Shown: positions 26,872 through 58,201, numbered from the stretch's first letter. The stretch: DNA of 64,000 nt from an uncultured Acidobacteriota bacterium (GCA_963700145.1 OY969474.1:4928001-4992000), one strand, 5' to 3'. Notes: generated by a model from the sequence alone, not told the origin. Program-made: numbers and translations.

Positions 26872-26898
26872 CGCGCGACGGCTAAGCGACAACCGAGC

Positions 26899-29358: not shown

Positions 29359-29436
29359 GCGTCGGGGTTAGCCCAAGTACCTAAGCATTTTAACCACCGG
29401 CCGCGCCGCCGTCCAGGCCGGTATATCGTGCCCGCC

Positions 29437-31734: not shown

Positions 31735-31741
31735 TGCGTGC

Positions 31742-32134
31742 TCACTGTTGCCGGCTGGTCCTCGGTGGCTGGACGGGTCCCCATCCGAACAGGCCCTGCT
31801 GTTGTTGCCAGGCGGTGCCGGTCACCCAGTAGACCGTGTCGACCCCCAGTTGGAGGAGACCGAACGCCAGGTTCCCCACTTGGTTGAGCAGACCGGATGC
31901 GGTGCCGGCCGCCTCGGGGAGGCCGAACGCAGCGTCCACCACCGCTCTCTGCAGCCGGTCCCCGCTCTCGAAGGCCGAGCGCAACGTCGGCCCGAGCTGC
32001 CCTTCAGCGGAGCGGGCCACGGCGCCGAAGGCCGTCGCCGCCCGGGGCGGGGCGATCAGGTTGGTCATCTGTTCGACGCCGAGCAGGGACATGGCCCACG
32101 AGAAGCTCGCCAGGGATTCAGCCAACTCACGCAT
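31742..32134 (-). CDS. hypothetical 'SWAMSL' domain protein
   Basis: MRELAESLASFSWAMSLLG.. aligns with the N-termini of 38116-39870 and 42579-42995. GAGGAG RBS. Confidence 0.8.
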   Translation of the reverse strand: MRELAESLASFSWAMSLLGVEQMTNLIAPPRAATAFGAVARSAEGQLGPTLRSAFESGDRLQRAVVDAAFGLPEAAGTASGLLNQVGNLAFGLLQLGVDTVYWVTGTAWQQQQGLFGWGPVQPPRTSRQQ

Positions 32135-32150
32135 CGACGTCGCTCCTCTG

Positions 32151-38073: not shown

Positions 38074-38115
38074 GATCGTCTCCTTGATCGAGGTCTCGAG
38101 GACGCTCTCCCCGCT

Positions 38116-39870: not shown

Positions 39871-40023
39871 GGCAGAAACCCCTCTTCGCCGGCCTGTGCC
39901 AGCCCAGCGCCTCGCACCCCCGTGCCTCCAGTGGGCGACACAGCGGTCCTGTACGCCGCGAAGCGCGTCCCGGCCCGGGGCCTGGCGCCTCGCGGCGCAT
40001 CCGGCCTTCCGGAAGACGGCGGC

Positions 40024-42578: not shown

Positions 42579-42995
42579 CTATGCACCGGGCGCGGGGATC
42601 GGCCCCCAGCCCGACTGCGGCTGCGGCGCGGAGGGCACGGCCTGGGTGGAGCGCTGCATCAGGTCGACGCCGGCCTGCGCGGTCTGGCAGATTGCGTCGG
42701 CGCCGGTGCGCATCGCGCCGGTGGCGCCGGGGGCCCAGGCGGCTGGGTTCCAGGTGCCGCCGGAGCCGATCATCCCGAACATCATGTCGACCATCCCCTT
42801 CTGCATGCTGTCGCCAGCCCGGTACAGCGACCGCAGCGTCTGCCCGAGTTGCCCCTCGGTTGTGCTGGACACCCCGTTCAACGAAGAGGCGGCCTGGCCC
42901 CAGGTCTGCGGCATCAGCAGGTTGGCCGCCTGCTTCAAGCCGAACAGTGACATCGCCCACGAGAAGCTCATCATCGACTTCGTCAGTTCGCGCAA
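42579..42995 (-). CDS. hypothetical 'SWAMSL' domain protein
   Basis: MRELTKSMMSFSWAMSLFG..GDSMQKGMVDMMFG..GWGP. AAGGAG RBS before TTG. Confidence 0.8.
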   Translation of the reverse strand: MRELTKSMMSFSWAMSLFGLKQAANLLMPQTWGQAASSLNGVSSTTEGQLGQTLRSLYRAGDSMQKGMVDMMFGMIGSGGTWNPAAWAPGATGAMRTGADAICQTAQAGVDLMQRSTQAVPSAPQPQSGWGPIPAPGA

Positions 42996-43031
42996 GGGAC
43001 AGCTCCTTTCTTCCGGGCTCGCCCGGCTTGG

Positions 43032-44699
43032 TCAGGCGAGCCTGAGCATGATTCGGAACAGCATCGCCAGAGCGGCGCCGGCCAGCACGGCCTCCGCCGT
43101 GAACAGGTTGATCCCGGGCTCGGCGGGTCCCCCCGCCACCAGCATCAGCAGCGACAGTGCGCAGGCCGTGACGGCGAGCTGGAGCGCCCGCTGGCGCGAC
43201 TCTCGATGGGACGCCGGGGCGGACCGCGGTACTTCGGCCGCGCCGGGCGGCCCGTCGGCGGCGAACTGCTCCAGGGCTTTCGCCGCCCGAAACGCTCCGT
43301 CGCGGAGCAACCGGGCGCTGGCGCCGGTCCAGTCGATGAGCCGGTCCTCGGCCACCAGCCGCTGCCACCCCTCCCGCCGCAGGTTGCGCTCGCAGACCTC
43401 GGCGAGGTAGGCGCCGACGTCGAACCCGGGCGCGAAGCGGGTGATGAGGCCGTCGATGGCGATGGCCGAGCGGATGTACTTGATGACGTCCCGCTCCGGC
43501 CAGATGCCGGTGGTGCGCGACAGCCGCAGCATGTCGAGCATCACCAGGGTGAAGTTCTTGCGCAGCTTGCGCTGCTTGCCGCGCTGCTCGTACCAGGCCT
43601 CGGCGAAGCGGTCGAGACCGGCGCGGAAGGCGGCGACGTCCGCGCCGGTGTCGAGAGTGGAGACCTTGAGGAAGGCGGTGCACATCCCGTCGAGGTCGCC
43701 GCGCGTGTAGGCCAGGGTCATGGTGATCAGATGACCGCGGGAGTATTGGCTGAGCACGCCGGTGATGCCGAAGTCGACGTAGCCGACGACGTTGCCGGGC
43801 TGGATCAGCAGGTTCGCCGGATGCAGGTCGGCGTGGAAGATGCCGTGGCGGAAGGCGTCGCCCAGGAAGTTGTCGATCATGTGGCGGCCGAACCGGTCGG
43901 GCTCGAAGCCGGCGGCGGCGAGCCGCCGCGGCAGCAGCTCCTCGCCGCTCTCCAGCGCCCGCAGGTAGTCGAGCACGGTGACGCCTTCGAGGAACTCGAC
44001 CGTCAACACCCGCGGCGTGGTGAGCTCGACGACCAGCTCCGGCACCCGCTCGTGGGGGTTGTCCTGCGCGTTGACCCGCAGCCGCTCCATGTAGCGGGCC
44101 TCGTTGCGGTAGTCGAGCTCCTCCAGAGTCCAGGCCACGAACTCGCTCATCGGCTCGATCACCCACTCGAGCCGGCGGATGCGGAAGCGGCGGATCGCCC
44201 CGACCATCGCGCTCATCAGCCGGATGTCGCCGGCGAAGTCGGTGACGACGATCGGCCGCTGCACCTTGACGGCGAGCTTGCGGCCGCCGCGCCAGGCGAC
44301 GTGCACCTGGCCGATCGATGCGGTAGCCAGGGGCTGCCGCTCGAAGACGTCGAAGAGCTCGTCGGGGCCGCGCCCCAGGTCGGCGCGCACCACCGCCTCG
44401 ACCTCCGCGTACGGGAACGGCGCCACCCGGTCGAGCAGGTCGAAGAGGGCGTTGCAGTACTCCAGCGACAGGATGTCGGGCTGCAGCGCCAGCATCTGGC
44501 CGAACTTGATGAAGGTGCCGCCGAGGTCCTCCAGCAGAGCGGCGAAGCGCCGCGGGCCGGGGAGGTCCCCCGGCGGCAGCCGCCGGGCGAGCGCCGGCCA
44601 GCGCGCCAGCCGCGGGCCGAGCGCGTGCGCCACGCCGTGCGCCGCGAGCACGCGCAGGATGTTCCCGAGCCGGCGGAGGTTGGCGGCGGCGGTCCTCAC
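43032..44699 (-). CDS. ABC1/UbiB/AarF-family kinase
   Basis: LGGTFIKFGQ, LATASIGQVH, AVKVQRP, FHADLHPAN and VDFG. Confidence 0.92.
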   Translation of the reverse strand: MRTAAANLRRLGNILRVLAAHGVAHALGPRLARWPALARRLPPGDLPGPRRFAALLEDLGGTFIKFGQMLALQPDILSLEYCNALFDLLDRVAPFPYAEVEAVVRADLGRGPDELFDVFERQPLATASIGQVHVAWRGGRKLAVKVQRPIVVTDFAGDIRLMSAMVGAIRRFRIRRLEWVIEPMSEFVAWTLEELDYRNEARYMERLRVNAQDNPHERVPELVVELTTPRVLTVEFLEGVTVLDYLRALESGEELLPRRLAAAGFEPDRFGRHMIDNFLGDAFRHGIFHADLHPANLLIQPGNVVGYVDFGITGVLSQYSRGHLITMTLAYTRGDLDGMCTAFLKVSTLDTGADVAAFRAGLDRFAEAWYEQRGKQRKLRKNFTLVMLDMLRLSRTTGIWPERDVIKYIRSAIAIDGLITRFAPGFDVGAYLAEVCERNLRREGWQRLVAEDRLIDWTGASARLLRDGAFRAAKALEQFAADGPPGAAEVPRSAPASHRESRQRALQLAVTACALSLLMLVAGGPAEPGINLFTAEAVLAGAALAMLFRIMLRLA

Positions 44700-46357
44700 G
44701 GCCGCGCTCCTCCCGGCGCCGAAGCGGGCTCGGCGACCGGTCCATCTTCGGCGTCGAAGATGGAGCCCCAGAAGAGGTGCTTGCGCCGCCGCAGCATGTC
44801 GGCGATCGCTTCCTCCAGCCGGCCGCGCACTTCCTGGCTGATCGCCTGGACGATCGCCGGATCGTCCGCCGCCTCGGGCGGGTAGCGGCCGGCGACGTGC
44901 AGCGGCTCGAGGAAGCGAGTGTGCCACTTCGAGGGCAGCGGCAGGCCGGGGAGCGGGAAGTTGGGGCCGAGCGGGAAGTACGGCCACTCGAGGAAGCGGT
45001 GCACCCAGCCGGCGTTGAGGCGCGCGAAGATCGGGTAGATCTCGGCGCTGCCGACGGTGACGAAGGGGACGATCGGCGCGCCGTGCCGCAACGCCATCTT
45101 CACGTACTCGTCGCGCCCGAACTTGCCGAGCAGGTAGGCGCGGCGGTAGGGCGTGAAGGCGCCGTGGATCCCCTCCGGGAACATCCCCAGCAGCTCGCCG
45201 CGCTCGAGCACCCAGTCGCCGTTCTCCTGGCAGGCCGGGATGCCGCCGAGCTTGGTCATGTAGTTGGCCAGGAACGGCTGCTTGACCAGGCAGGGGTGGA
45301 TGAGGAAGCGGATGATCCGCCCGGTCCCCCGCGCCACGGTGTGCAGCGCCATCACTCCGTCCCAGGGCATGAAGCCGCGGTGCACGCCGGTCAGCACGGC
45401 CGCGCCGCGCCGGGGCACGTGCTCGAGGCCGCGCACCTCGATGCGCCAGTAGGCGCGGTGGAGGAAGCGGAAGAGGGTGCGGCCGTAGGCCGCGATGTAC
45501 CGCTCGTCCATGCCGTAGTCGTCGAAGTCGGGGGCGCCGGCCGGGTCGCGCCCGCCGGCGGCGAGGAGCGCCTCGGCGCTCGAGCGCTGCGGCGCCCAGC
45601 CGAGGGCGCGCAGCCGGCGGTCGCCGACCGTCCAGGGGTGGCGCAGGTAGGCCAGCTCGGCGGCGTTGGCCCGCCCAAAGAGGCGGAGCAGCGGCCCGGG
45701 GAGCGGCAGGGCGCTGGCGCCGGCCAGGCGGAGGGCGTCGCGCACCGGCACGACGCCGCGCGGCGCGACGTGGAAGACGCCGTCCGCGTCGCGGTCGACG
45801 ACGCAGCCGACCGCGGCGGCGAGGTCCTCGGGCGCCAGGAGCTGGAGCGAAGGGCCCCAGCCGGCCAGCGGGAAGGCGCGGCGCCGCAGCAGGAAGCGGG
45901 CGAGGGGGTCGCCGCCGTCGCGCGCCACCACCGTCGCCGGCCGCAGCACCGCCAGCCGCCCGCCCCAGCCGGCGGCGGCCGCCGCGGCCATCGCCTCGAG
46001 CTCCAGCCAGCGGCGGGCGATCGGGTTGCGGCCGCGCGGGCGCGTCTCCTCGCCGACGTGGCCGGCGTGCTCGTGCACGGGGTCGTGGACCTGTGCGCTC
46101 GACAGCAGCACCAGCCGCCGCGGCCGGACCGCGCCGAGGGCGTCGAAAAAGCGCGCCGCCGCGTCCAGGTCGGGCCCGCGGCCGGGGAGCGCCCGCGGCC
46201 GGAAGACCACGGTCTCGGTCCCGGCGTCGAGCCGCGCTGCCGCCGCCGGCTCGTCGCCGAGGAGAGCCAGTGCGTCCGCGGCGTCGCCGCCGCGCAGCCG
46301 TTCGGCGATCGCGGCGCTGACGCCGTCCCGCGGCCCGACGAAGGCGACTCTGGCCAT
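44696..46357 (-). CDS. degenerate NAD-dependent epimerase/SDR domain fused to PlsC-type acyltransferase
   Basis: N-terminal Rossmann-like domain (VLLSSAQV, VLRPATV). C-terminal HRGFMPWD (HxxxxxD), FPEG and GAPIVP. Confidence 0.82.
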   Translation of the reverse strand: MARVAFVGPRDGVSAAIAERLRGGDAADALALLGDEPAAAARLDAGTETVVFRPRALPGRGPDLDAAARFFDALGAVRPRRLVLLSSAQVHDPVHEHAGHVGEETRPRGRNPIARRWLELEAMAAAAAAGWGGRLAVLRPATVVARDGGDPLARFLLRRRAFPLAGWGPSLQLLAPEDLAAAVGCVVDRDADGVFHVAPRGVVPVRDALRLAGASALPLPGPLLRLFGRANAAELAYLRHPWTVGDRRLRALGWAPQRSSAEALLAAGGRDPAGAPDFDDYGMDERYIAAYGRTLFRFLHRAYWRIEVRGLEHVPRRGAAVLTGVHRGFMPWDGVMALHTVARGTGRIIRFLIHPCLVKQPFLANYMTKLGGIPACQENGDWVLERGELLGMFPEGIHGAFTPYRRAYLLGKFGRDEYVKMALRHGAPIVPFVTVGSAEIYPIFARLNAGWVHRFLEWPYFPLGPNFPLPGLPLPSKWHTRFLEPLHVAGRYPPEAADDPAIVQAISQEVRGRLEEAIADMLRRRKHLFWGSIFDAEDGPVAEPASAPGGARP

Positions 46358-46374: not shown

Positions 46375-47958
46375 CTATCCCGCCCGCGCCCACCCCGCCG
46401 GGCCGGCGCGGCTCGGCACCAGGGACGGCTCCAGCGCCGTCCCGAACGGCTCGTCGAGCGCGGCGTCGCGCCCGTCCAGGATGCGGCGGGCCACCTGCTG
46501 CGCCGAGACGATCACCGGCGTGATCCCGCCCCCCGGCTGCACCCAGTGGCCGACGAGGTGGAGGTTGCGCACCGGGCTCTCGGTCCCCGGCCGGTCCGGG
46601 CCGAGCTGGTCGGGCGACATCTCCCAGCCCAGCATCGCCCCCTGATGGTTGAGGGTGAAGCGCCACGAGGTCTGCGCCGTGGCGCTGCTGCTGACCACGA
46701 TGTGCTCGCCGATCCCGGGGAGCACCCTCTCGAGGTTGCCGAAGACGTACTCCTCGAGCCGCCGCTTGTGCGCCGGCCAGTCGGTGATCCCGTCGTAGTC
46801 GATGTCGAGCACCTTCTGGACGATCAGGACCTTCCCCCCCTCCGGCGCCATCGCCGGCTCGTAGAGGGTGGGCGAGAAGAGCTTGAAGCGCAGCGCGTTG
46901 CGCCCCATCCCCCGCGGGTCCCAGTCGTCCCAGTAGTAGCCCTGCGCCGCGTTCAGCACTTCGTCGGGCACGTCGCGCAGGCCGAGGTGGGTAAGCCAGC
47001 AAGGGAAGGTGCAGCGCAGCTCGCGCAGCGCCGCGAGGTGGCCGTCGGGCAGGTGCTCCTCCCCGACCAGCTCCTCGTAGGTGAGCAGGAGGTCGGCGTT
47101 CGAGACCACGACGTCGCTGCGCACCGCGGCGGGCCCCCGCCACGGGCCGCGCAGCGTCTCGAGCTCCACCCCGCGCGCCGTGCCGTCCTCGATCAGGATG
47201 CGCCGCGCCGCCGTGCTCATCAGCACGTGGCCGCCCTGCTCCTCGAGGCGCAGCGCCAGCTCGTCGGCGAAGGCCTGCGAGCCTCCCTTCGGGTAGTAAT
47301 TGCCGAGGAAGTAGGAGAGCCGCAGCATCGAGTCGAAGACGAAGGAGGTGCGGTCGGGGGGCGAGCCCCAGTGCGGCGCGTCGGCGGTCAGCAGGAGCTT
47401 GAGCTTGGGGTCGCGGAACCACTCGTCGAGCGCGTCCATCACCGTGACTTCGCGCAGCGGCTGGAGCTTCTCGACGCGCGCCGCCGGCAGGCCGCGGAAG
47501 TAGTGCAGGAGGCCGGCGAAGTAGGCCTTCCGCACCGTGCCGAAGAAGCCGTCGAGGGCCGCTTCCTCGTGCGGGAACTCGGCCTTGAGGGCGTCGAGGT
47601 AGGTCTCGAAGTCGGCGGCGACGGCGAAGCGCGTGCCGTCGGGGAAGTGGAAGACGTCGACCGGGTCCATCTTGACCCAGCCCGTCGTGACGCCGAGCTC
47701 GGCGAGGATGCGCCCCGGCAGCGTCTCGGGGTTGCCGAGCAGCGGGTAGAAATGAGTGGCGGCGTCGAAGGTGTAGCCGCCGCGGCGGAAGGTGCTGCAG
47801 AAGCCCCCGGCCATGTAGTGCTGCTCGACGAGCAGTACCTTCATGCCGCCGCGCGCCAGCAGGTTGGCCGCGATCAAGCCGCCGATGCCGGAGCCGATGA
47901 TCACCGCGTCGTAGCGCGGGTCGGGCGGCCGGCGCAGGCCGCGGAAGGGTCGCTTCAT
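46375..47958 (-). CDS. phytoene desaturase (CrtI)-superfamily FAD oxidoreductase
   Basis: IIGSGIGG, AGGFCSTFRRGGYTFD, YYPKGGS and VGHWVQPGGGI. Confidence 0.88.
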   Translation of the reverse strand: MKRPFRGLRRPPDPRYDAVIIGSGIGGLIAANLLARGGMKVLLVEQHYMAGGFCSTFRRGGYTFDAATHFYPLLGNPETLPGRILAELGVTTGWVKMDPVDVFHFPDGTRFAVAADFETYLDALKAEFPHEEAALDGFFGTVRKAYFAGLLHYFRGLPAARVEKLQPLREVTVMDALDEWFRDPKLKLLLTADAPHWGSPPDRTSFVFDSMLRLSYFLGNYYPKGGSQAFADELALRLEEQGGHVLMSTAARRILIEDGTARGVELETLRGPWRGPAAVRSDVVVSNADLLLTYEELVGEEHLPDGHLAALRELRCTFPCWLTHLGLRDVPDEVLNAAQGYYWDDWDPRGMGRNALRFKLFSPTLYEPAMAPEGGKVLIVQKVLDIDYDGITDWPAHKRRLEEYVFGNLERVLPGIGEHIVVSSSATAQTSWRFTLNHQGAMLGWEMSPDQLGPDRPGTESPVRNLHLVGHWVQPGGGITPVIVSAQQVARRILDGRDAALDEPFGTALEPSLVPSRAGPAGWARAG

Positions 47959-47995
47959 TGGAGAGAACCGCCTCCGCGGGGGAGGGAGCGCCGCA

Positions 47996-49219
47996 TCACG
48001 GCTGGTCTCCTTGCGGGCGGTTCCGCCCATAGGTCTCGTGCGCGTTCACGAACTCCCCCGACGCCAGGGCCGCCCCCATCGACAGCTCGCCGGCGAGCAG
48101 CGTCGCGGCGGCGACCTCCGCCAGCTTCCGCGCCCCGCCGGCGCCGGCACAGCCCAGCAGCTCCAGGCACTCCTGCGCCGTCCCCAGAGCGGTGCCGCCC
48201 CCCACCGTCGCCACGGTGAGCGACGGCAGGGTGACGCTGGCGTAGAGGTCGCCTCCCGCGAGCTCCTCGAACTGTGTCATGCCGACGGCCGAGTTGGCCA
48301 GGTTCGCCACGTCCTGGCCGCAGGCGATGAAGAGCGCCGCCAGGCCGTTGGCGTAGTGGCCGCTGTAGCCGATCGCGCCCGCCTGGATCTTGCCCGTCAC
48401 GGTATGTCGCCAGAGCTCCGCCAGCTCGCCGGCCGAGACGTGCAGGTAGGTCTGCAACAGCCGCGCCGGCAGGCGCGCGCCGGCCACCACGCGCTTCCCC
48501 TTGCCGCCGGCCAGGAGGCCGCCCCCGGCCTGCTTCTCGCCGTCGAGGCCGCTGAAGATCGAGTAGCCGCGGGCGCGGCCGTGGGCGACGATCCAGCGGC
48601 AGGCGGCGTCGGTGGCGCGCACGATCATGTTCATGCCGTGCGCGTCGCCGGTCGAGTAGCAGAAGTTGACCATCACCTCCCGCCCCACCGCCCGCGGCTC
48701 CAGCCGCAGCAGCCGGCCGTGGCGGGTGGTGGCCTCGGCGGCGGCGCGGATCTCGGCGAAGTCGGCCGCCAGCTCGTCGACGAAGCGGCAGGCCTCCTCG
48801 ACGCTGTCGAGGAAGAAGGCGGGGGCGACGCGGTTCTCGTCCTGGTAGAGGTGGACGGCGGCGCCGCCGGCGCGCGTCAGCGTGACCATGCCGCGCTCGT
48901 AGGAGCGCACCAGCGCCCCCTCGTTGGTCGCCAGCGGCACGTAGAAGAGCCCCCGGGCGTGCTCGCCGTGGACGAGCAGCGGCCCGGCCAGGCCGAGCGG
49001 CACTTGCGCCACGCCGATCGGGTTCTCCACCTTGCCGCGCATCGCCAGGGTGGGAAGCGGCTCAGAGCCGACGTGCCGCAGCGCCACGCCCGCGCGCTCT
49101 TCGATCCAGCGCCGCCGCGCCGCGACCTGCGCGTCGCCGTACCCCTGCTCCTCGAAGCGCGGCACCAGGTCGGCCGCGCGCATCGCCGACGGGAAGGCGG
49201 TGACGGTCGTGCGCGCCAC
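47996..49219 (-). CDS. HMG-CoA reductase-like protein, copy 1
   Basis: ENPIG..PLGLAGPL, ATNEG, DAHGMNM, GQDVA, TVGGGT, LAGELS and a C-terminal His. Confidence 0.88.
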   Translation of the reverse strand: MARTTVTAFPSAMRAADLVPRFEEQGYGDAQVAARRRWIEERAGVALRHVGSEPLPTLAMRGKVENPIGVAQVPLGLAGPLLVHGEHARGLFYVPLATNEGALVRSYERGMVTLTRAGGAAVHLYQDENRVAPAFFLDSVEEACRFVDELAADFAEIRAAAEATTRHGRLLRLEPRAVGREVMVNFCYSTGDAHGMNMIVRATDAACRWIVAHGRARGYSIFSGLDGEKQAGGGLLAGGKGKRVVAGARLPARLLQTYLHVSAGELAELWRHTVTGKIQAGAIGYSGHYANGLAALFIACGQDVANLANSAVGMTQFEELAGGDLYASVTLPSLTVATVGGGTALGTAQECLELLGCAGAGGARKLAEVAAATLLAGELSMGAALASGEFVNAHETYGRNRPQGDQP

Positions 49220-49262
49220 GCTCAGACCTCCGCCCCGTCCCCCGCGAGGGCCACGCGCCCTT

Positions 49263-49541
49263 TCATCCCTCCACCGCCTGGGCCTTCCGCGCCAGCTCGC
49301 CCAGCCGCCCCTGGACGAGGGCGACCATCGCCGGCAGGTTGTCGATCTCCTTGTAGCGGTCGTCCGCCAGCCCGAGCTGGAAGTTGTAATCGACGTCGAC
49401 GCCGATCTCGAGCAGCGACAGGGAGTCGAGGTTGAGATCGTCGCGGAGCGTCGCCTCGTCGGGGATGCGCGCCGGGTCGAGGCCGGCGACGTGGGCGATG
49501 ATCTCCTTCAGGCGGGTGCGGATCGCGTCGGTGTCGTTCAT
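49263..49541 (-). CDS. acyl carrier protein, copy 1
   Basis: DDLNLDSLSLLEI phosphopantetheine motif in an acidic 92-aa protein. Confidence 0.92.
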   Translation of the reverse strand: MNDTDAIRTRLKEIIAHVAGLDPARIPDEATLRDDLNLDSLSLLEIGVDVDYNFQLGLADDRYKEIDNLPAMVALVQGRLGELARKAQAVEG

Positions 49542-49766
49542 GCGCCCTCACTGACCGCACGCCGCCACCGGCCGCCGGCGGCGGAGAGCAGTCGAAGTCC
49601 GTGGTGAGCCTGCCGGGCGGCAGGCAAAGGGGCGGCAGCTCGGCGGACGCCGAGCCGCGCATTCGAGTCGACGGTTGAGCGGACGCAAGCGGCAATCCCT
49701 CCGGGCCCTCCGGCCGACTTGCGTCCCGTCAGCCGCGATGGCCGCATTGCCCGTCTTTCAAATGAA

Positions 49767-49775
49767 TTTATAACA
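49767..49775 (-). promoter_or_regulatory. putative extended -10 promoter element for the ACP1 operon
   Basis: TGTTATAAA on the minus strand in an AT-rich patch about 230 nt upstream of ACP1. Confidence 0.4.
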
Positions 49776-49838
49776 TAAGGCCCACGATGCTACCAGGAGT
49801 CTGCGAGGGAAAATCGGGAGCGCCGGCTCCCATAATCT

Positions 49839-51296
49839 CTATGGATGCGGCGCGAACACGGCATGGAAGCCGGGGGTGATCGGGGCGGCCAGCGGCAGGA
49901 CGGCGCGCGGTCCGGCGGCGAGGTCGAAGGCGTCGAAGACCAGCCAGGAGCTGGCGCGGCGCTCGGCATCGAAGAGGTGGCAGACGGCAACGCCGCGCAG
50001 CGAGCCGTCGTGCTCGGTTTCCGGTGCGAGTACCACGACCGGCTCGCTCGCCAGGTACCGTCCCGGCGGCGGCTGCCAGACGTCCTGGGTCTCCGGGTCC
50101 GCCCACGAGAGGCGCACGAGCTGGTCGAAGAACTTGCGCCCCGGCCGGCCGGTGGCGGCGATGCCGAGGAGCCAGAGGTCGTCGCACGGTCGCTCCGCCA
50201 GGCGGAGGTCGATCGACGGGAAGTCCGGCGCGTTGCCGTAGGGCAGCTCGCGCCGCTCGACGAGGGCGCCGGCCTCCAGGTCCACCACCAGCCGCACCGG
50301 CCACCCCTCCGCCACGTCGCGGAAGAGCTCGGGGACCGGCGCGTACTGGTCGTAGACCGGCCGCTCCAGCTCGAGCAGGTCGACGACCAGCCGCCCGCGC
50401 GCGTCCTCGAAGGCGTTTGCCGTGTGCAGGCAGTAGCGGCCGCCGAGCGGCAGCTCGGCCACCGCCTCCAGCGTGTCGCGCGCCACGACGAGCAGCCGGC
50501 TGCCGAGCTCCGGCCGCCAGTCGAGCGCCTCCAGCAGCGGCGCGCCGCCGGCGAGGGCGGCCATGTCGAGCAGGTAGGGCGAGAGGTAGAAGACGGCGTA
50601 TCGCGGCGCCAGGGCGAAGTCGTGGAGCGAGCACGGGTACGGCAGCGGCAGCCGCTTGCGCGCCGCCAGCTTGCCGCCGGCGGTGCAGCGGTAGACGTTG
50701 AGCGCCGGCTCGGCGCCGGCGAAGGAGACGCCGAAGTTCCACAGCTCGCCGGTCGCCGGGTCGAGCTTGGGGTGCGCCGAGAAGGGAGCGATCGGGCCGA
50801 GGCCACCGCCGAAGGTGTAGGGGCCGCGGGTCGCCAGCGTCTCCGGGTCGATCTCCCAGGGTAGCCCCTGCTCGCCGCAGGCGAGGAGCGTGCCGGCGTA
50901 GGGCAGCACGCTGACGTTGACCGGCGACTCCAGGGCGATGCCGCGCAGCAGCCGGTCGCCGGGGAAGGCGGTACCGAAGGCGCGAAAGAGCGCCCGCCCC
51001 GCCTCCTCCTCTGCCGTCCACTTGACGCTGCGCACGAAGCGGCAGGTGAAGCGGACGCCGTCCTCTCCGAAGCGTAGGGCCTCGACCAGCCCGTCGCCGT
51101 CGAGCCAGTGGCGGTAGCGCAGGCCGCCGCGCTCGAACCGCCCGGGGCCGTTGACGTAGAGCGTGCCGCGCAGCCAGTCGGGCAGCTCGCCGGCGACCGC
51201 GACCGCCTCGCTCCGCTCCTCGGGCAGGAAGTCGAAGGCGCGCTCGAGGTGGGGCGCGTAGTCCGCGTCCCCGGGCGCCCGCGCCGGCTCGCTCAT
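49839..51296 (-). CDS. carotenoid oxygenase (RPE65/CCD/lignostilbene dioxygenase) family protein
   Basis: LRGTLYVNGPG, HWLDGDG, four iron-ligand His (SAHPK, LHDF, LHTAN, GFHA) and SEPVV. Confidence 0.9.
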   Translation of the reverse strand: MSEPARAPGDADYAPHLERAFDFLPEERSEAVAVAGELPDWLRGTLYVNGPGRFERGGLRYRHWLDGDGLVEALRFGEDGVRFTCRFVRSVKWTAEEEAGRALFRAFGTAFPGDRLLRGIALESPVNVSVLPYAGTLLACGEQGLPWEIDPETLATRGPYTFGGGLGPIAPFSAHPKLDPATGELWNFGVSFAGAEPALNVYRCTAGGKLAARKRLPLPYPCSLHDFALAPRYAVFYLSPYLLDMAALAGGAPLLEALDWRPELGSRLLVVARDTLEAVAELPLGGRYCLHTANAFEDARGRLVVDLLELERPVYDQYAPVPELFRDVAEGWPVRLVVDLEAGALVERRELPYGNAPDFPSIDLRLAERPCDDLWLLGIAATGRPGRKFFDQLVRLSWADPETQDVWQPPPGRYLASEPVVVLAPETEHDGSLRGVAVCHLFDAERRASSWLVFDAFDLAAGPRAVLPLAAPITPGFHAVFAPHP

Positions 51297-53101
51297 CGCG
51301 CCGCCGCCGCGGCCTCCATCGTCTCCTCCGGCTCGACCTCCACGTCCTCGCCGGCGGGCCGCCGGAAGCGCGCCATGCAAGCGGGCTCGATCTGCCAGGG
51401 GGAATCGCCCGCCGGCAGGTCCTTGCAGGCCTGCCAGCGCGCTGCCATCGCCTCCGGGTCGAAGACCAGGTTCGCGACGTCGATGCCGCGCACGTACTCG
51501 GCGTGGTGGACCAGCCGCGGCTCGTCCAGCACGACGGCGGCGACGTGCGCGGCGACGAAGCGCGCCAGCTCCTCCAGGTTGCCGGTCTGCTCGTCGAGCA
51601 CGCGGAACGCTTCGTTGAAGTCGGCGCCCTGCCGGTAGAAGCAGTCGGCCGCGGCGCGGAGCTGCCAGGCCTCGGTGAACTCGAAGTAGACGGGCCCTTG
51701 CGGCGGCAGCATCCGCCGCTCCTTCTTCCAGTTGTAGAAGCCGACCAGCAGCGTGAGGACCCCGAGGTTGAGCGGCCCGAGGTGGCCGAAGCGCCGCAGG
51801 AAGCCGGGGAGGAACCGCTTGTCGGTGAAGAGGTCGTTGATGAAGGGGAAGACGAAGAAGGCGAAGTAGATCGTCAGCTCCCAGACGTAGCGCAGGGTGT
51901 AGCACTCCTGGTCCCCGAGCAGGTCCTGCGACACCGCGAAGCTCGGCACGTAGGCCTGGTAGACCGCGCGCGCCAGCCCCTCGTAGAGCGGGACCTTCTC
52001 CTCCAGCTCCTTGCGGTCCGCGGTCAGGATGGCGTCCGAGACGATCGTGTTGTAGATCGAGATCAGGTCGCCGCCGGGGCTGTAGAGGGGGTCGGTGAAG
52101 CGGCAGGCCTCGCCGGTCATCGACCAGCCGGCCGCCGAGAGCGTCTCCGCGCAGTCGTGGGCGAAGTCGGCGAAGCCCGAGTGGTAGATGACCTTCCGCT
52201 GTGGCAGGTCGCGGGCGAACATCGGGATGTTGCGGCACACCCAGTCGATCAGCTTGTCGGCGGTGTTGACCTCTTTCCACGGCACGCGCTCGGTGTCGAA
52301 GACCAGCCCCAGGCTGGTCTTGCCGTGCAGCGGGATCTCCCAGAACCAGTAGCCCTCGCCGCAGAAGTGGTTGGTGGCGAGGAACGTCGGGACGTGCCCC
52401 AGATTGTGGCGGTCCTTGCGCTTGCGGATGCCGGCCGCGTCGAGGTCGGTCAGCTTCTCGGGGTCGAGCAGCCCCTCCACCCAGAGGAACGAAGAGCCGT
52501 GGCGGATCGGGCTCTTGCGCATCAGCCCCCTGCGCTTGGCGAGCAGGCGGCCGCGGCCGCTGTTGTCGGCCACCCAGCGCGCGCGGCCGGCGATCGGGCC
52601 GTCGGGGGTCTGGACGCGGAAGGGGTGCGGGCCCTGCTCCTCCTGCAGCTCCAGCTCGATGTTCGTCGCCTCGGTCACCAGCCGGAAGCTCGGGTGCTCC
52701 TGGTTGACGCGCAGCACCTCGGCCTCGAAGGCGTTGCGGTCGAGCTGGTAGGTGACGATGTTCGACAGGTGCCGGATGTAGGACTGGCTCTGCTCCTCCC
52801 AGCGCGTGGCGCCGCCCGGCGGCTGCCAGTAGAAGCGCAGGTTGTACTTCATGTAGTGGTGGCGGAGGAGGTGCTCCTCGAGCTCCAGCACGCGCGCGTA
52901 GTAGTAGCCGGAGACCTGCACCGTGGCCTCCCCCACCTTCTGCTCCAGCGGCGGCACGACCGCCCGCCGGTCGAGCATCAGGATGCGCATCTCGGGGCGC
53001 TTCAAGAGGAGCTGGCGCGCCAGCGTCAGGCCGGCCAGGCCGGCGCCGATCACCAGCACGTCGTAGTCCTCGACCCGGGTTTGCTGCCGCGTCTCATCCA
53101 T
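51293..53101 (-). CDS. flavin-dependent halogenase-like protein
   Basis: GAGLAG, KVGEAT, MKYNLRF, WFWEIP (WxWxIP) and FTDPLYSPG. Confidence 0.8.
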   Translation of the reverse strand: MDETRQQTRVEDYDVLVIGAGLAGLTLARQLLLKRPEMRILMLDRRAVVPPLEQKVGEATVQVSGYYYARVLELEEHLLRHHYMKYNLRFYWQPPGGATRWEEQSQSYIRHLSNIVTYQLDRNAFEAEVLRVNQEHPSFRLVTEATNIELELQEEQGPHPFRVQTPDGPIAGRARWVADNSGRGRLLAKRRGLMRKSPIRHGSSFLWVEGLLDPEKLTDLDAAGIRKRKDRHNLGHVPTFLATNHFCGEGYWFWEIPLHGKTSLGLVFDTERVPWKEVNTADKLIDWVCRNIPMFARDLPQRKVIYHSGFADFAHDCAETLSAAGWSMTGEACRFTDPLYSPGGDLISIYNTIVSDAILTADRKELEEKVPLYEGLARAVYQAYVPSFAVSQDLLGDQECYTLRYVWELTIYFAFFVFPFINDLFTDKRFLPGFLRRFGHLGPLNLGVLTLLVGFYNWKKERRMLPPQGPVYFEFTEAWQLRAAADCFYRQGADFNEAFRVLDEQTGNLEELARFVAAHVAAVVLDEPRLVHHAEYVRGIDVANLVFDPEAMAARWQACKDLPAGDSPWQIEPACMARFRRPAGEDVEVEPEETMEAAAAAR

Positions 53102-54332
53102 CGCTGCCTCCCTCCGGCCGGTTGCGGCCGTACTCCTCGTGCGCGCCCACGAACTCCCCGGAGGCGAGCGCCGCGGCGAGCGACAGCTCGCCGGCCAGCA
53201 GGGTCGCGGCGACGATCTCGGCCAGCTTGCACGCGCCACCGGCACCGGCGCAGCCCAGCAGCTCCAGGCACTCGCGGGCCGTGCCCTCGCCGGTGCCGCC
53301 GCCGACGGTGCCGACGGTGAGCGCCGGCAGCACCACGCTGGCGTAGAGGTCTCCGGCCTCCGTCAGCTCGAGCTGGGTCGTGCCGACCGCGGCGTTGGCG
53401 AGGTTCGCCACGTCCTGGCCGCAGGCGATGAAGATCGCGGCCAGACCGTTGGCGAAGTGACCGTTGTAGCCGACCACGCCCGCCTGCAGGTTGCCGACCA
53501 GCGTCGTGCGCCAGAGCTGCACCAGCCGCCGCGGCTCGCTGTTGAGGTAGGCGCGCACCAGCCGGCCCGGCAGGTGCGCCCCCGCCATCACCGTCTTCCC
53601 CTTGCCGCCGGCGAGGAGCGAGGCGCCGGCGTGCTTCTCCGACTCCATGCCGCTGAACAGCAGGTAGTCGCGCGCCAGCCCCTTGGCGACGATCCAGCGG
53701 CAGGCGCGGTCGGCGGCCTTCGCGATCATGTTCATGCCGTGCGCGTCGCCGGTCGAGAAGCAGAAGTGCACCATCACCTCGCGCCCCACGGCCCGCGGCT
53801 CGAGGCGCAGCAGGCGGCCGTGGCGGGTCGTCGCCTCGGCCTCGGCGCGGATCTCGGGCAGCAGCTCCTGGAGCCGGAGGCAGAGGTCGGCGGCCTGCCC
53901 GACGTCGTCGAGGAAGAAGACGGGCGAGATGCGGTTCTCGTCGCGGGTGACGCGGGCGGCGACGCCGCCGGCGCGGCTGAGCAGCACCATGCCGCGCTCG
54001 TAGGAGCGGACCAGCGCGCCTTCGGTCGTGGCGAAGGGGACGTAGAAGACGCCGCGGGCGTGGTCGCCGTTGACCAGCAACGGCCCGGCCAGGCCGAGCG
54101 GCACCTGCGCGGCGCCGATCGGGTTCTCGACGTTGCCGCGCATCGCGCGGCCGTCGATCGAGTGCGCGCCGACGTGCGCCAGGGGGACGCCGCACCGCTC
54201 CTCGATCCAGCGGCGGCGCGCGGCGATCTGCTCCGGCTCGTACCCCTGCTCCGCGAAGCGCGGCACCAGGTCGGCGCGAGCGGCGTCCGGCTCCAGCGGA
54301 ACGGCGTGCGGGCGCGGCGACGGCGGCGCCAT
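53094..54332 (-). CDS. HMG-CoA reductase-like protein, copy 2
   Basis: NVENPIG, ATTEG, DAHGMNM, GQDVA and LAGELS. Colinear with copy 1. Confidence 0.88.
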   Translation of the reverse strand: MAPPSPRPHAVPLEPDAARADLVPRFAEQGYEPEQIAARRRWIEERCGVPLAHVGAHSIDGRAMRGNVENPIGAAQVPLGLAGPLLVNGDHARGVFYVPFATTEGALVRSYERGMVLLSRAGGVAARVTRDENRISPVFFLDDVGQAADLCLRLQELLPEIRAEAEATTRHGRLLRLEPRAVGREVMVHFCFSTGDAHGMNMIAKAADRACRWIVAKGLARDYLLFSGMESEKHAGASLLAGGKGKTVMAGAHLPGRLVRAYLNSEPRRLVQLWRTTLVGNLQAGVVGYNGHFANGLAAIFIACGQDVANLANAAVGTTQLELTEAGDLYASVVLPALTVGTVGGGTGEGTARECLELLGCAGAGGACKLAEIVAATLLAGELSLAAALASGEFVGAHEEYGRNRPEGGSDG

Positions 54333-55552
54333 CAGGCCGGCCCCGCGAAGACGACGGCGCAGCAGTGGCCGTCCCAGCCGACACCGCTGGCGAGCGCGCG
54401 GCGGGCCGCGACCGGGCGGGCGGCGGCGGCGAGGCCGCCGAGCGCGCAGCCGTCCTCGGTCGCTTCGAGCCCGGCGACGCCGGGCAGCTCACCGGTGCGG
54501 AAGGTCTCGAGCAGCGCCACCGCCTGGAAGCCGCCCGAGGCGCCGAGCGCCTCGCCGAGCGCGCCCTTGACCGCGGTCACCGGCACCGCCGCGGCCGCGC
54601 GGCCGAGCGCCGCCGCCAGCCCCGCCGCCTCGGCGCGGTCGCCCTCCGGGCTGCCGTTGGCCGCCGCGGAGACGCAGTCGATCTCCTCCGCCGCGAGGCC
54701 GGCCTGCCCGAGCGCCAGGCCGACGGCGCGCGCCACCGCGCCGGCGCGGGCGGCGGGAGAGGGGGCGAAGGCCTGGCCGTGCGCCACCACCTCGGCCAGC
54801 ACGGTCGCGCCGCGCGCCGCCGCCGACTCGGCGTCCTCCAGCATCAGCAGGGCCGCGCCCTCGGAGAGGGCGAAGCCGTTGCGCCGCCGGTCGAAGGGGA
54901 CCGGCCGCTCGGCGCCGTCGGGCCGCGGTCCGCAGAGGCGCCCGGCGCGGAAGCAGCCGAGGAACGACTCGAAGCACAGCTCCTCGGCGCCGCCGGCCAG
55001 CAGCGCGTCGGCGCGGCCGCCGGCGATCAGGTCGGCGGCGTGGGCGATCGCCATGAGCCCCGAGGCCTCGCCGCCGGAGAGCGTCGAGTTGACGCCGCGC
55101 AAGCGGTGCCAGATCGCGGCCTGCCCGGCGGCGGCGTTGATGACGCTGTTGGCGAAGTCCATCGGGCTGGCGTACCCCGGCCCCAGCTGCTGCCCGCGCC
55201 GGTCGAACTCCGCGATCGTCCGCACACTGCAGAAGGTGGTGCCCAGGACCAGCCCCACCTCGCGCTCGTCCAGCCGCTCGGGCGTCCAGCCGGCCGACGC
55301 CAGCGCCTGCCCGGCCGCCACGAGCAGCAGCCGCGAGGTGCGGTCGACGGGCCGCAGGTTCCGGTCGCCGAGGTAGGCGCGGGCGTCGAACGGGCGGATC
55401 TCCCCGGCCCGCACGGCCCCCAGGCCGTTGGTCGGAAAGAGCTCCACCGGCTTGAGCGCGCTCTCCCCGGCGCACAGCGCCGCGTGCAGGGCGGAAGGAG
55501 AATCGCCGAGTGGGGAAATAACCCCGGCGCCCGTGACCACGACCCTCCTCAC
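54332..55552 (-). CDS. ketosynthase-like protein lacking the catalytic triad (chain-length-factor-like)
   Basis: KS fold (RRVVVTGAG, PFDRRRNG..EGA), but Cys is Glu (SGGEAS), HGTGT is AANGS and GH is GE. Confidence 0.85.
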   Translation of the reverse strand: MRRVVVTGAGVISPLGDSPSALHAALCAGESALKPVELFPTNGLGAVRAGEIRPFDARAYLGDRNLRPVDRTSRLLLVAAGQALASAGWTPERLDEREVGLVLGTTFCSVRTIAEFDRRGQQLGPGYASPMDFANSVINAAAGQAAIWHRLRGVNSTLSGGEASGLMAIAHAADLIAGGRADALLAGGAEELCFESFLGCFRAGRLCGPRPDGAERPVPFDRRRNGFALSEGAALLMLEDAESAAARGATVLAEVVAHGQAFAPSPAARAGAVARAVGLALGQAGLAAEEIDCVSAAANGSPEGDRAEAAGLAAALGRAAAAVPVTAVKGALGEALGASGGFQAVALLETFRTGELPGVAGLEATEDGCALGGLAAAARPVAARRALASGVGWDGHCCAVVFAGPA

Positions 55553-55766: not shown

Positions 55767-56984
55767 TCACAGCTCGCAGCTCCGGAAGATCACCGACGCA
55801 TTATTCCCCCCGAAGGCGTAGGCGTTGTTCATCGTCACCCGCACGTCCAGCTTTCGCGCCGCGTTCGGCACCACGTCCAGATCGCACTCCGGGTCCGGCT
55901 CCTCGTAGTTCATCGTCGGCGGCACCCGGCCCGTCGCGATCGCCAACGCGCACACTACCGACTCGATCGCCGACGCCGCCCCCATCGTGTGGCCCAGCAT
56001 CGACTTCACCGAGCTCATCGGCGGCACCCCACCCTCACCAAACACCCGCTGCACCGCGATCGTCTCCAACCGATCGTTCGTCGGCGTCCCCGTGCCGTGC
56101 GCGCTGATGTAGCTCACCTCGTCCGGCGCCACCCCCGCGTCCGCCAGCGCCCGCTCCATCGCCCGCGCCGCTCCGTCACCCTCCGGGTGCGCCGCCGTCA
56201 TGTGGTGCGCGTCGCACGACAGGCCATACCCCGCCACCTCGGCGTAGATCCGCGCTCCCCGCCCGACCGCCCGCTCCAAGGGCTCCAGCACCAGGACCGC
56301 CGCTCCTTCCCCAGGGATCATCCCCTTCCGGTTCTTGTCGAACGGCCGGCAGAGGTCCGGGGCGATCGCCCCGAGACGGAAAAAGCCCGTGTAGGTGATC
56401 CGCGAGAAGGCGTCCGCGCCGCCGGCCAGCATCAGGTCCGCGCGCCCGGCCCGCAGCACGTCCAAGGCGTGCGCCACCGCGTAGTTGCCCGCCGCGCAGG
56501 CCGCCGGGATCATCGTGTTGACCCCGCCGAACCCCAGCTCCTGGCCGACGTGCGCCGCGATCATGTGGCAGGGGTAGAGGCCCATGAACTCCGGACCCAC
56601 TTGGTCCAGCTCGCCGGCGAGATAGCGGTCGTCGAAGCGCTCGACCTCCACCGGCTCGCCCGAGGTCGTCCCCATCGAGACCCCGGCGCGCTCGGGCTCC
56701 ACCGCCTCGGCCTCCAGACCGGCGTCGGCCAGCGCCATTCGCGCCGCCGCCACCGCGAATTGCGAGGCCCGTCCCAGCGCCGCGGGGTCGAGCGTGCGCA
56801 CCCACGCCGCCGGCTCGAAGCCGCGCACCTCGGCGCCGAGGTGGACGTTGAACCGCCCGGTGTCGAAGGACTCGACCGGCGTGAAGCCGCTGCGCCCCGC
56901 CAGCAGCCCCGACCACAGCTCGTCCGCCCCCGTGCCGACCGGCGTCACCGCCCCGAGGCCGGTGACGACGATCCGCCGCTTCAT
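55767..56984 (-). CDS. beta-ketoacyl-ACP synthase II-like ketosynthase (FabF family)
   Basis: Cys-His-His triad intact: PAACAAG, SAHGTGT and LGHTMGA, plus AFGGNN. Confidence 0.93.
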   Translation of the reverse strand: MKRRIVVTGLGAVTPVGTGADELWSGLLAGRSGFTPVESFDTGRFNVHLGAEVRGFEPAAWVRTLDPAALGRASQFAVAAARMALADAGLEAEAVEPERAGVSMGTTSGEPVEVERFDDRYLAGELDQVGPEFMGLYPCHMIAAHVGQELGFGGVNTMIPAACAAGNYAVAHALDVLRAGRADLMLAGGADAFSRITYTGFFRLGAIAPDLCRPFDKNRKGMIPGEGAAVLVLEPLERAVGRGARIYAEVAGYGLSCDAHHMTAAHPEGDGAARAMERALADAGVAPDEVSYISAHGTGTPTNDRLETIAVQRVFGEGGVPPMSSVKSMLGHTMGAASAIESVVCALAIATGRVPPTMNYEEPDPECDLDVVPNAARKLDVRVTMNNAYAFGGNNASVIFRSCEL

Positions 56985-57268
56985 GCCGAGGCCGCCTGCG
57001 CTCCCACGGCCAGCTCCTCGAGGCGCTCGCTGACGAGGGCGACCATGTCGGGGATGCTGCGGACCTCCTTGAAGCGCTCGTCGGGGAGACCGAGCTGGAA
57101 GGCGTAGTCGACGTCGACCCCGATCTCGAGCAGCGACAGCGAGTCGAGGTGCAGGTCCTCCCGCAGGGACGCCTCGTCGCCGATCCGTTCGACGTCGAGC
57201 CCGGCCACGTGTGCGATGACGTCCTTGATGCGGTCCCGGATGGCCGCTTCGTCCGTGCGATGGTCCAT
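56981..57268 (-). CDS. acyl carrier protein, copy 2
   Basis: EDLHLDSLSLLEIGVDVDY with AGGAGG RBS. Stop overlaps the KS start. Confidence 0.92.
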   Translation of the reverse strand: MDHRTDEAAIRDRIKDVIAHVAGLDVERIGDEASLREDLHLDSLSLLEIGVDVDYAFQLGLPDERFKEVRSIPDMVALVSERLEELAVGAQAASA

Positions 57269-57487: not shown

Positions 57488-58201
57488 TTAAGGGCGCAAC
57501 TTGCGCGCGAGCGCGGCCGGCGCGGCGGCCAGCCAGACGAGTCCGGCGGCGAGCGCGCCCGCGGCCTCGACCGCCAGCGCCGCGAGCCAGAGGAGCGCCG
57601 CGGCGAGCCCCCAGAGCACCAGCCACGGCACGGCGAGGAGGCGCCCGCCGGCGGGGAGCGCCGCGGCGAGACTGGCGAGGACGCCGGGGCCGCTCGTCTC
57701 GACCGGCCCGCACCCCTCCTCGCCGCCGCATTCGTAGCGGCTCTCCGGCGCGCCGGCGACGGCATACGCCGCCTCTTCCATCGGATGGCCGCGGTAGCGG
57801 AAGCGGCACGCCGCGGCGTGCGCCAGGTAGAGGGGGATGAACGGCCGCAGGAGGCCCGGGCCGCGCCCGCTCTCCTGCATCTGCAGGGCGTGGAAGGCCT
57901 CGTGCAGCAGGAGGCTCCTGCCGCCGTGCGACTCTGGGTCCCAGGCGCGCGGGTGGACGTAGATGCGGGCGCGGCGCAGCGACAGCGTCGCCGGCAGCGT
58001 GATGCCGCTGTGCCGCAGGCCCCGCAGCAGGTGCGGGAAGCCGCGGTGGAAGGTGACGGCCGAGAGGTCGAGCGTCGGGTAGACGCGGGCGAGCAGGGCC
58101 AGCAGCTCCGGCGGCGGCTCCGCCCGCTCGGGGAAGAACCAGCGCCAGACCGTAGCGCCCGGCCTACGTGCCGGGCGTTCCCCGGACGGAGGCGCGCTCA
58201 C
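57488..58201 (-). CDS. HExxH (DUF4157-like) membrane-anchored protein
   Basis: LLLHEAFHALQ..HPMEEAAY and a C-terminal hydrophobic tail. GTGA-coupled start. Confidence 0.65.
   Translation of the reverse strand: MSAPPSGERPARRPGATVWRWFFPERAEPPPELLALLARVYPTLDLSAVTFHRGFPHLLRGLRHSGITLPATLSLRRARIYVHPRAWDPESHGGRSLLLHEAFHALQMQESGRGPGLLRPFIPLYLAHAAACRFRYRGHPMEEAAYAVAGAPESRYECGGEEGCGPVETSGPGVLASLAAALPAGGRLLAVPWLVLWGLAAALLWLAALAVEAAGALAAGLVWLAAAPAALARKLRP

Follow-up and report, generated by a model that had tools for sequence, protein, structure and literature searches.

The stretch of DNA analysed here, hereafter the window, is 64,000 nucleotides long and comes from an uncultured Acidobacteriota bacterium (GCA_963700145.1, OY969474.1:4928001-4992000). 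Between positions 47,996 and 54,332 it encodes two paralogous proteins that resemble hydroxymethylglutaryl-CoA (HMG-CoA) reductase (HMGR), named HMGR1 and HMGR2. The window has a G+C content of 72%, and the G+C content by codon position shows that its minus-strand genes form one unbroken string from about 58186 to 40723. In the order of transcription, the first half of this string is composed of an open reading frame (ORF) with no assigned family, an acyl carrier protein (ACP2), a ketosynthase (KS), a chain-length-factor-like partner (CLF), HMGR2, a halogenase-like flavoprotein and an RPE65-family gene. The second half consists of ACP1, HMGR1, a CrtI-like flavoenzyme, an acyltransferase, ABC1 kinase a, a 150-residue ORF and ABC1 kinase b. 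The stop codon of CLF overlaps the start of HMGR2 (TGATG), and the end of ACP1 is separated by 43 nucleotides from the start of HMGR1, which is preceded by a GGAGG. The original prediction for this locus, made from the DNA alone, had assigned each paralog to an ACP operon of its own. Both ACP genes are real, but they belong to a single same-strand string and not to two operons.

Both reductase ORFs are real and intact, with a third-position GC of 0.92-0.94, and their products are 70% identical. Each matches Pfam family PF00368 (cut-off 27 bits) from residue 32 or 36 onwards, and each falls below the cut-off of 441.8 bits of the NCBIfam HMGR equivalog TIGR00533 (scores in Table 1). Matches in the Protein Data Bank (PDB) include the archaeal enzyme 6hr7, with 275 bits, and human HMGR, with 173 bits. 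The characteristic motifs read ATNEGAL, FSGLDGEKQ and NAHETYGRN in HMGR1, and ATTEGAL, FSGMESEKH and GAHEEYGRN in HMGR2, and GDAHGMNM and GQDVAN are found in both. The earlier description of two HMGR-like paralogs with altered motifs was thus confirmed, down to every motif that it quoted.

Human residue numbers were transferred via the PDB alignment. The list of HMG-binding residues, Ser684, Asp690, Lys692 and Lys735, is that of the consulted part of a review (PMC7503714), and Leu862 was taken as an HMG-site residue from the sections used of Grossi et al. 2025 (ISME J, PMC11948995). The salt-bridge lysine printed there as 'Lys795' presumably corresponds to Lys735 of the review. The relatives of the window proteins were represented by 34 alignment rows, picked for His at 655 and Glu at 690, which are nearly the same as the 33-row tree clade described below. 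By this selection, M655 is His and D690 is Glu in 34/34 rows. The catalytic residues E559, K691, D767 and H866 are retained in all 34. S684 is replaced by Phe in 32/34 rows and L862 by Phe in 33/34, while N567 is Glu in 33/34 and K722 is His in 32/34. Lys is absent from position 735 in all 32 of the 34 rows that were tallied (His in 15, Arg in 12, Asn in 3, Thr and Asp in 1 each). At positions 684, 690, 692, 735 and 862, HMGR1/HMGR2 have F, E, Q/H, H/T and F, where the H at 735 belongs to HMGR1 and the T to HMGR2. Positions 684, 690, 691, 692, 735 and 862 are occupied by S, D, K, K, K and L in each of the 9 canonical rows. Compared with canonical class-I HMGR (EC 1.1.1.34; PDB 6HR7, archaeal, and 1DQ8 and 2Q1L, human), the window proteins share the PF00368 fold, E559/K691/D767/H866 and the NADPH-site residue R627. 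However, S684, D690, K692, K735 and L862 are altered, the equivalog cut-off is not reached and there is no link to mevalonate genes. Judging by these alignments, the window copies are without the HMG-binding residues but retain the catalytic tetrad.

The genome is assembled as one contig (C1) of 5.46 Mb and contains four PF00368 genes. A canonical HMGR, with the motifs GDAMGMNM and SGNYCTDKKP, is found at 1.62 Mb (locus L007, C1:1612000-1631999). It lies between IDI-2 and a GHMP kinase, and nearby are a diphosphomevalonate-decarboxylase-like gene, an AA_kinase-family (IPK-like) gene, a polyprenyl synthase and an SQS_PSY gene. No match to Dxr or IspH was found in the genome, and the cell therefore appears to depend on the mevalonate route. 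The window operon has no mevalonate genes. The claim that neither HMG-CoA synthase nor mevalonate kinase is encoded in the window held: the two mevalonate-kinase-like matches of the genome are both located outside it, and HMG-CoA synthase gave 0 matches genome-wide with PF01154 and 0 with PF08540. PF01154 was above its cut-off in only 8 of 31 related genomes. The genome search for mevalonate genes that had been suggested with the original prediction hence found a nearly complete pathway elsewhere. This does not refute repurposing of the window proteins; since the pathway has its own canonical HMGR, it supports it. The window proteins are 38-40% identical to this canonical enzyme and 42-43% identical to a third paralog in the same genome, described below. 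On sequence grounds, the window paralogs are not the mevalonate enzyme of the cell. We also considered whether KS, CLF and ACP together with an HMGR-like enzyme could substitute for the HMG-CoA synthase step. This was rejected on three grounds: an aldol-type condensing enzyme is missing from the operon, KS has the normal Cys-His-His make-up of a Claisen enzyme, and the reductases have lost their HMG-binding residues.

A relative with an assayed activity is FcrA, a fatty acyl-CoA reductase derived from class-I HMGR, with examples in Natronomonas pharaonis and Ca. Promineifilum breve (Pb-FcrA) (PMC11948995). According to the sections of that paper drawn on here, FcrA uses NADPH to convert acyl-CoA with chains of at least C14 into the alcohol, does not reduce HMG-CoA or the free C16:1 aldehyde, and is not inhibited by simvastatin. 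The catalytic tetrad is kept, S684 is replaced by Glu, the HMG salt-bridge Lys is replaced by residues described as 'generally small', and L862 is replaced by a bulky residue (Trp528 in N. pharaonis). The same sections report that certain FcrA proteins carry an N-terminal alkyl-binding (Lad) domain, note ACP-fused forms, and link FcrA to PlsC-like genes and ether lipids. Acyl reductases of the HMGR fold have thus been known as a kind since 2025, and the ACP-fused forms mean that reductive release by this fold was overstated when it was put forward as an unusual strategy.

The window proteins appear to match FcrA only in part. They share with it the fold, the catalytic tetrad, the loss of the HMG salt-bridge Lys, a bulky residue at 862 and the co-occurrence with a PlsC-like acyltransferase. 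The match at the salt-bridge position is loose, since the FcrA residues are small in general. However, the window clade has Phe and not Trp at 862, and its DAHGMNM, N567E and D690E are specific to it. The N-terminal Lad domain is missing from the window reductases, in which PF25653 gave no match. Furthermore, the window proteins sit behind ACP-KS-CLF, and therefore their likely substrate is acyl-ACP. The third paralog, C1:5434611 (locus L008, C1:5425000-5444999; reductase at 9603-11879 of the locus, minus strand), has a PF25653 N-terminal domain (125 bits) and has E, V and W at 684, 735 and 862. Downstream of it, on the same strand, are a beta-CASP/MBL gene, an ABC1 kinase and a PlsC acyltransferase. 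By its sequence, this protein fits the FcrA type proper, feature for feature.

More distant HMGR-like proteins have domain fusions. Among 22 representatives compared with Pfam, 4 combine AMP-binding, PP-binding and HMGR domains, 5 combine AMP-binding and HMGR domains, and 6 have a C-terminal APH/EcKL kinase domain. Other fusions in this set involve DUF3419, PilZ, response-regulator receiver and thioesterase-like domains. The fused representatives are metagenomic (P0125-P0217), and the non-canonical branch of HMGR to which they belong is large and mostly unstudied. The loader-carrier-reductase fusions are the best in-silico support for an ACP-bound substrate, and the fused kinases parallel the ABC1 kinases of the window operon; both bear on the window proteins by analogy and are not direct evidence for them.

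Of 8000 candidates scored in a protein search with a window reductase, 7691 matched. Identity to it is 65-89% for the best 120, and every name given among them is 'hydroxymethylglutaryl-CoA reductase'. Among representatives clustered at 50% identity, 3420 matched at E <= 0.001, and only two full-length ones exceeded 50% identity. A FastTree phylogeny of 159 rows placed HMGR1 and HMGR2 in a clade of 33 rows (support 99), for which (G/A)DAHGMNM and FSGxxxEK are characteristic, and the canonical enzymes in another clade of their own (9 rows, support 100). The tree is unrooted and without a class-II outgroup; one branch, supported at 100, divides it so that the window clade falls on the side away from the canonical enzymes. 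The duplication into HMGR1 and HMGR2 is limited in the reductase tree to close relatives of the window. In a scan limited to one genome per species, 203 relatives were identified, and the operon occurs in about 200 species-level genomes. A set of 76 loci was examined, with 81 reductase matches. They come from Thermoanaerobaculia, Holophagales, Blastocatellia/Pyrinomonadaceae, Vicinamibacteria and Terriglobia, together with four metagenome-assembled genomes labelled Planctomycetota or Verrucomicrobiota, and the clade is mostly acidobacterial. Clade-level matches, with at least 55% identity, were found in 8 of 301 genomes of an even sample of the phylum, and the operon is therefore an accessory and not a core trait.

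The gene order around the reductase is well conserved in these loci, which were counted only where the flank was sufficient. KS is directly upstream of the reductase in 55/66, CLF is upstream in 52/66 and an ACP in 48/64. The CrtI-like gene is directly downstream in 64/72 and is the tightest partner of the reductase. The acyltransferase is found further downstream in 29/52. An ABC1 kinase is present in 19/52, the RPE65 gene in 27 of the 52 loci with long flanks and the halogenase-like gene, which accompanies the RPE65 gene in relatives, in 21/52. The ACP-KS-CLF/CrtI-like context is present on all deep branches of the reductase tree of the clade, and KS is missing upstream of the reductase in two derived subclades and in locus L023, where the genes are re-ordered. 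Among the relatives without a nearby KS are L063, L069 and L072. In L063, the region upstream of the reductase/CrtI-like pair has a divergent group of genes, namely two of the AA_kinase family, a methyltransferase and a multicopper oxidase. L069 and L072 have ORFs that agree with these in size and order; of those, only the multicopper oxidase of L072 was scanned. A close relative with about 95% DNA identity (L009) has a second KS-CLF pair of 2.55 kb between ACP1 and HMGR1 (L009 15176-17732). The window has only the short spacer at this place (49219-49263), and another relative (L010) retains KS only. The missing pair is explained either by the stepwise loss of a duplicated synthase or, less likely, by an assembly difference.

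Table 1 Genes of the minus-strand string of the window, in the order of transcription.
Feature	Position	Strand	Evidence
Upstream ORF, family unassigned	57488..58186	-	No Pfam match at E <= 0.001; weak PF13699 match (E 0.0033), below cut-off
ACP2, carrier of the KS-CLF-HMGR2 module	56981..57268	-	PF00550, 38.6 bits; LDSLS serine motif
KS, active ketosynthase	55767..56978	-	Pfam; Cys-His-His triad; motifs ACAAG, SAHGTG, GHTMG
CLF-like inactive KS partner	54332..55552	-	Pfam; Cys replaced by Glu, both His lost
HMGR2, predicted HMGR-fold (FcrA-like) thioester reductase	53094..54332	-	412 aa; PF00368, 347.2 bits; TIGR00533, 324.9 bits
FAD-dependent protein, weakly flavin-halogenase-like (start uncertain)	51293..53245	-	Profile matches; PDB 3e1t, E 1.1e-7
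RPE65/carotenoid-cleavage-oxygenase family gene (start approximate)	49839..51290	-	PF03055, 315.7 bits; apocarotenoid oxygenase 6c7k, 160 bits
ACP1, directly upstream of HMGR1	49263..49541	-	PF00550, 31.6 bits; NCBIfam ACP models; LDSLS motif
HMGR1, paralog of HMGR2	47996..49219	-	407 aa; PF00368, 336.7 bits; TIGR00533, 310.4 bits; GTG start
CrtI-like flavin amine-oxidase-fold enzyme	46375..48030	-	crtI_fam, 145.6 bits, below cut-off; PDB 4rep, 84 bits
Fusion of atypical extended-SDR-fold domain and PlsC-type acyltransferase	44696..46357	-	PF01553, 41.5 bits, residues 305-433
ABC1/UbiB-type atypical kinase a	43032..44987	-	PF03109, 180 bits
Conserved 150-aa ORF, without family match	42579..43031	-	Homologs between two ABC1 genes in relatives
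ABC1/UbiB-type atypical kinase b (start approximate)	40723..42300	-	PF03109, 80.7 bits

The two ACPs of the string are 69% identical. The ORF at its upstream end gave tblastn matches in 9 loci, with 97% identity in L009 and 42-50% in the 8 others. Family scans found no thioesterase and no acyl-CoA ligase in the core operon, and the ORFs scanned from 19246 to 63925 of the window include neither a FabZ/FabA dehydratase nor a B12 radical SAM enzyme. L050 is the only relative in which an AMP-binding gene was seen, and it also has an aldehyde dehydrogenase near the cluster; a FabA-like gene was seen only in another relative (L079). Upstream of the operon, the window has one long open frame (58198-60372) with an EamA-family transporter and a GSDH/PVC-type heme-binding-like gene, and both genes are kept at this place in many Thermoanaerobaculia loci. 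Downstream of the operon, at 19246-29367 and 35647-40023, are FG-GAP/ASPIC (CRTAC1-like) proteins, a TPR/FG-GAP protein, a large SnoaL-domain protein and an alpha/beta hydrolase. These families also adjoin the reductase/CrtI-like pair in the distant relatives L018, L066, L075 and L079. Two paralogs of the 150-residue ORF were noted, one at about 31745-32284 and one forming part of the hydrolase gene at its N-terminus. The SnoaL-domain protein is duplicated in its C-terminal half, with the paralog (43% identity) located at 30499-31821. By sequence, these paralogs look like local duplications.

The product of the acyltransferase gene has a confident model, with a pLDDT of 82.6. Its N-terminal 300 residues or so adopt the fold of an extended short-chain dehydrogenase/reductase (SDR), with matches to epimerase-type SDRs (Foldseek E 3e-11; Atlas score 0.93). 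The glycine motif GxxGxxG is absent from this domain, and W117 and E121 are invariant at the presumed YxxxK site. For these reasons, the domain was rejected as an unlikely second active reductase. In a review (PMC9131029), the myxobacterial ether-lipid enzymes ElbD and MXAN_1675 are described as combining a fatty acyl reductase, here an SDR (FAR1-like), with an ACP and an acyltransferase of the PlsC/GNPAT-like kind; in MXAN_1675, the SDR-type reductase domain is fused to an acyltransferase. The window fusion has an architecture similar to that of MXAN_1675. However, its SDR-fold domain differs from ElbD and MXAN_1675 in lacking the glycine motif, and by this analogy the reducing role in the window seems to have passed to the HMGR fold.

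The chain-building genes have two known counterparts. KS is 48% identical to the polyene KS of ishigamide biosynthesis (6kxd_A; TM 0.93; 381.5 bits) and 36-44% identical to FabF and other ketosynthases. KS also matches PDB 9s5h_B with 488.5 bits, and CLF matches 9s5h_C with 241 bits. The highly reducing type II polyketide synthase of ishigamide (PDB 6KXD) thus has a related KS/CLF pair, but neither a ketoreductase nor a dehydratase dedicated to the pair is present in the window. Ishigamide leaves its synthase as an amide, without a reductive step.

The other counterpart is found in anammox bacteria. Rattray et al. 2009 (PMC2649909, in the portion consulted) describe a 'ladderane-type' cluster of type II fatty acid synthesis with ACP, FabZ, a divergent FabF pair, a phytoene-dehydrogenase-like enzyme and radical SAM. 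The window KS has matches at E <= 1e-110 in 24 of 401 sampled Planctomycetota genomes, or in 23 when the centre genome G325 is set aside. The identity is 51-54% for most of the best matches, and 48% and 51% for two of them. Hydrazine-synthase-alpha matches were found in all five of these genomes that were tested. In 6/6 Planctomycetota loci the order is KS (51-53% identical), CLF (34-38%) and CrtI-like (29-33%), and one locus has ACP, FabA-like, KS, CLF, amine oxidase and B12 radical SAM, a layout that fits the clusters described in that portion of Rattray et al. (PMC2649909). The window likewise has an ACP, an active KS, an inactive KS partner and a CrtI-like gene in one string. However, FabZ and radical SAM are not among its scanned ORFs, and the HMGR-like gene is found only in the window (0/6 Planctomycetota loci).

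Taken together, HMGR1 and HMGR2 are probably NADPH-dependent acyl-thioester reductases on the class-I HMGR fold, FcrA-like and not mevalonate-forming, that work with the ACP-KS-CLF chain builder. That they are repurposed thioester reductases is well supported because of the residue changes, the separate canonical enzyme and the precedent of FcrA. Reduction of the thioester to an alcohol would follow by analogy with FcrA. The conserved synteny, and the adenylation-carrier-HMGR fusions in other clades, suggest that the substrate is ACP-bound and not CoA-bound. Hence, of the repurposed acyl-ACP reductases of the original prediction, the repurposing and the departure from mevalonate formation stand, with a canonical HMGR elsewhere, the HMG residues lost and the tetrad kept, while ACP in place of CoA is suggested only indirectly. 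We infer the nature and the fate of the chain as follows. The KS/CLF pair would extend a chain on the dedicated ACPs. Given that the ketosynthases most similar to KS are of the polyene and anammox types, this chain is probably unsaturated. The reductase would accept the thioester, and its Glu, Lys, Asp and His would support two hydride transfers that release the primary alcohol, or it may stop at the aldehyde. The CrtI-like flavoenzyme would modify the chain, and the SDR-like/PlsC acyltransferase would transfer the product into an ester or ether lipid.

Several observations weigh against parts of this proposal. The only assayed relative, FcrA, acts on acyl-CoA and not on acyl-ACP in the sections of PMC11948995 drawn on here, and the window clade differs from it at 684, where it has Phe and not Glu. 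The CoA-contacting residues S565 and R568 are conserved in 34/34 clade rows, and the changes at N567 and K722 are mixed among carrier-fused and free forms of other clades. No KS is directly upstream in 11 of 66 clade members with enough flank, and in 8 of these 11 the flanks examined showed no homolog of KS, CLF or ACP at all; a dedicated ACP is therefore not obligatory. As for the nature of the chain, ketoreductase, dehydratase and enoyl reductase were not found among the scanned window ORFs. In addition, the trees were made with FastTree only, with midpoint or paralog rooting and no class-II outgroup. The predicted complex of an HMGR2 dimer with ACP2, which scored 0.70 as against 0.58 for a control with an unrelated protein in place of the reductase, argues neither for nor against binding.

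The use of acyl-CoA by FcrA, the conserved S565 and R568 and the loci with no KS directly upstream would all agree with FcrA-type reductases that act on free acyl-CoA and are fed by ACP, KS and CLF only indirectly, via hydrolysis and re-activation. We consider this rather unlikely, as the core operon has neither a thioesterase nor an acyl-CoA ligase, the AMP-binding gene is confined to one relative, ACP1 is so close upstream of HMGR1, and the adenylation-carrier-HMGR fusions show that the fold can serve carrier-bound thioesters. Reduction could also stop at the aldehyde after two electrons, or the enzymes could oxidise an alcohol or aldehyde supplied by the oxygenase genes; the product would then be an aldehyde or an acyl thioester and not an alcohol. 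The operon does include an RPE65-family oxygenase, which produces aldehydes, and L050 has its aldehyde dehydrogenase; however, HMGR and FcrA proceed to the alcohol without release of the aldehyde, FcrA is inactive on the free C16:1 aldehyde according to the same sections of PMC11948995, and the oxygenase is present in only about half of the loci with long flanks, which makes this course improbable. Finally, it is highly improbable that the window proteins are additional true HMG-CoA reductase isozymes that make mevalonate, even though all database names seen say so, the catalytic tetrad is intact and the genome relies on the mevalonate route. HMG-binding S684, K735 and L862 are replaced, the scores are below the equivalog cut-off, a canonical HMGR is already present in the mevalonate cluster, and the clade accompanies KS, CLF, ACP and CrtI-like genes and not mevalonate genes.

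For the acyl-thioester reductases proposed here, one product can be considered more specifically. The operon may be a reductive-release version of the anammox 'ladderane-type' core, in which an unusual alkyl chain, polyunsaturated or cyclised, is assembled on a private ACP by KS/CLF together with a CrtI-like desaturase. The alcohol would be set free by the HMGR-fold enzyme, and the pseudo-SDR/PlsC protein would install it in an ether or ester lipid of soil Acidobacteria. This specific version is decidedly doubtful. A literature search found nothing on the fixed place of the clade in an ACP-KS-CLF-CrtI-like operon related to the anammox cluster, or on the product of such an operon.

All named records seen for this clade are called HMG-CoA reductase, and calls of the mevalonate pathway in Acidobacteriota that are based on that label would be wrong. 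If acyl-ACP is indeed the substrate, type II synthases would have in these proteins a release enzyme that stands alone, is not an SDR and carries out a four-electron reduction, which would be useful for making fatty or polyene alcohols. The product of the operon would be a lipid or a pigment, and the anammox cluster for which ladderane synthesis has been proposed has its nearest relatives in the chain-building genes of this operon. Should the ladderane-type reading be true, culturable Acidobacteria would provide a tractable system for ladderane-type chain chemistry and for bacterial alkyl-ether formation.

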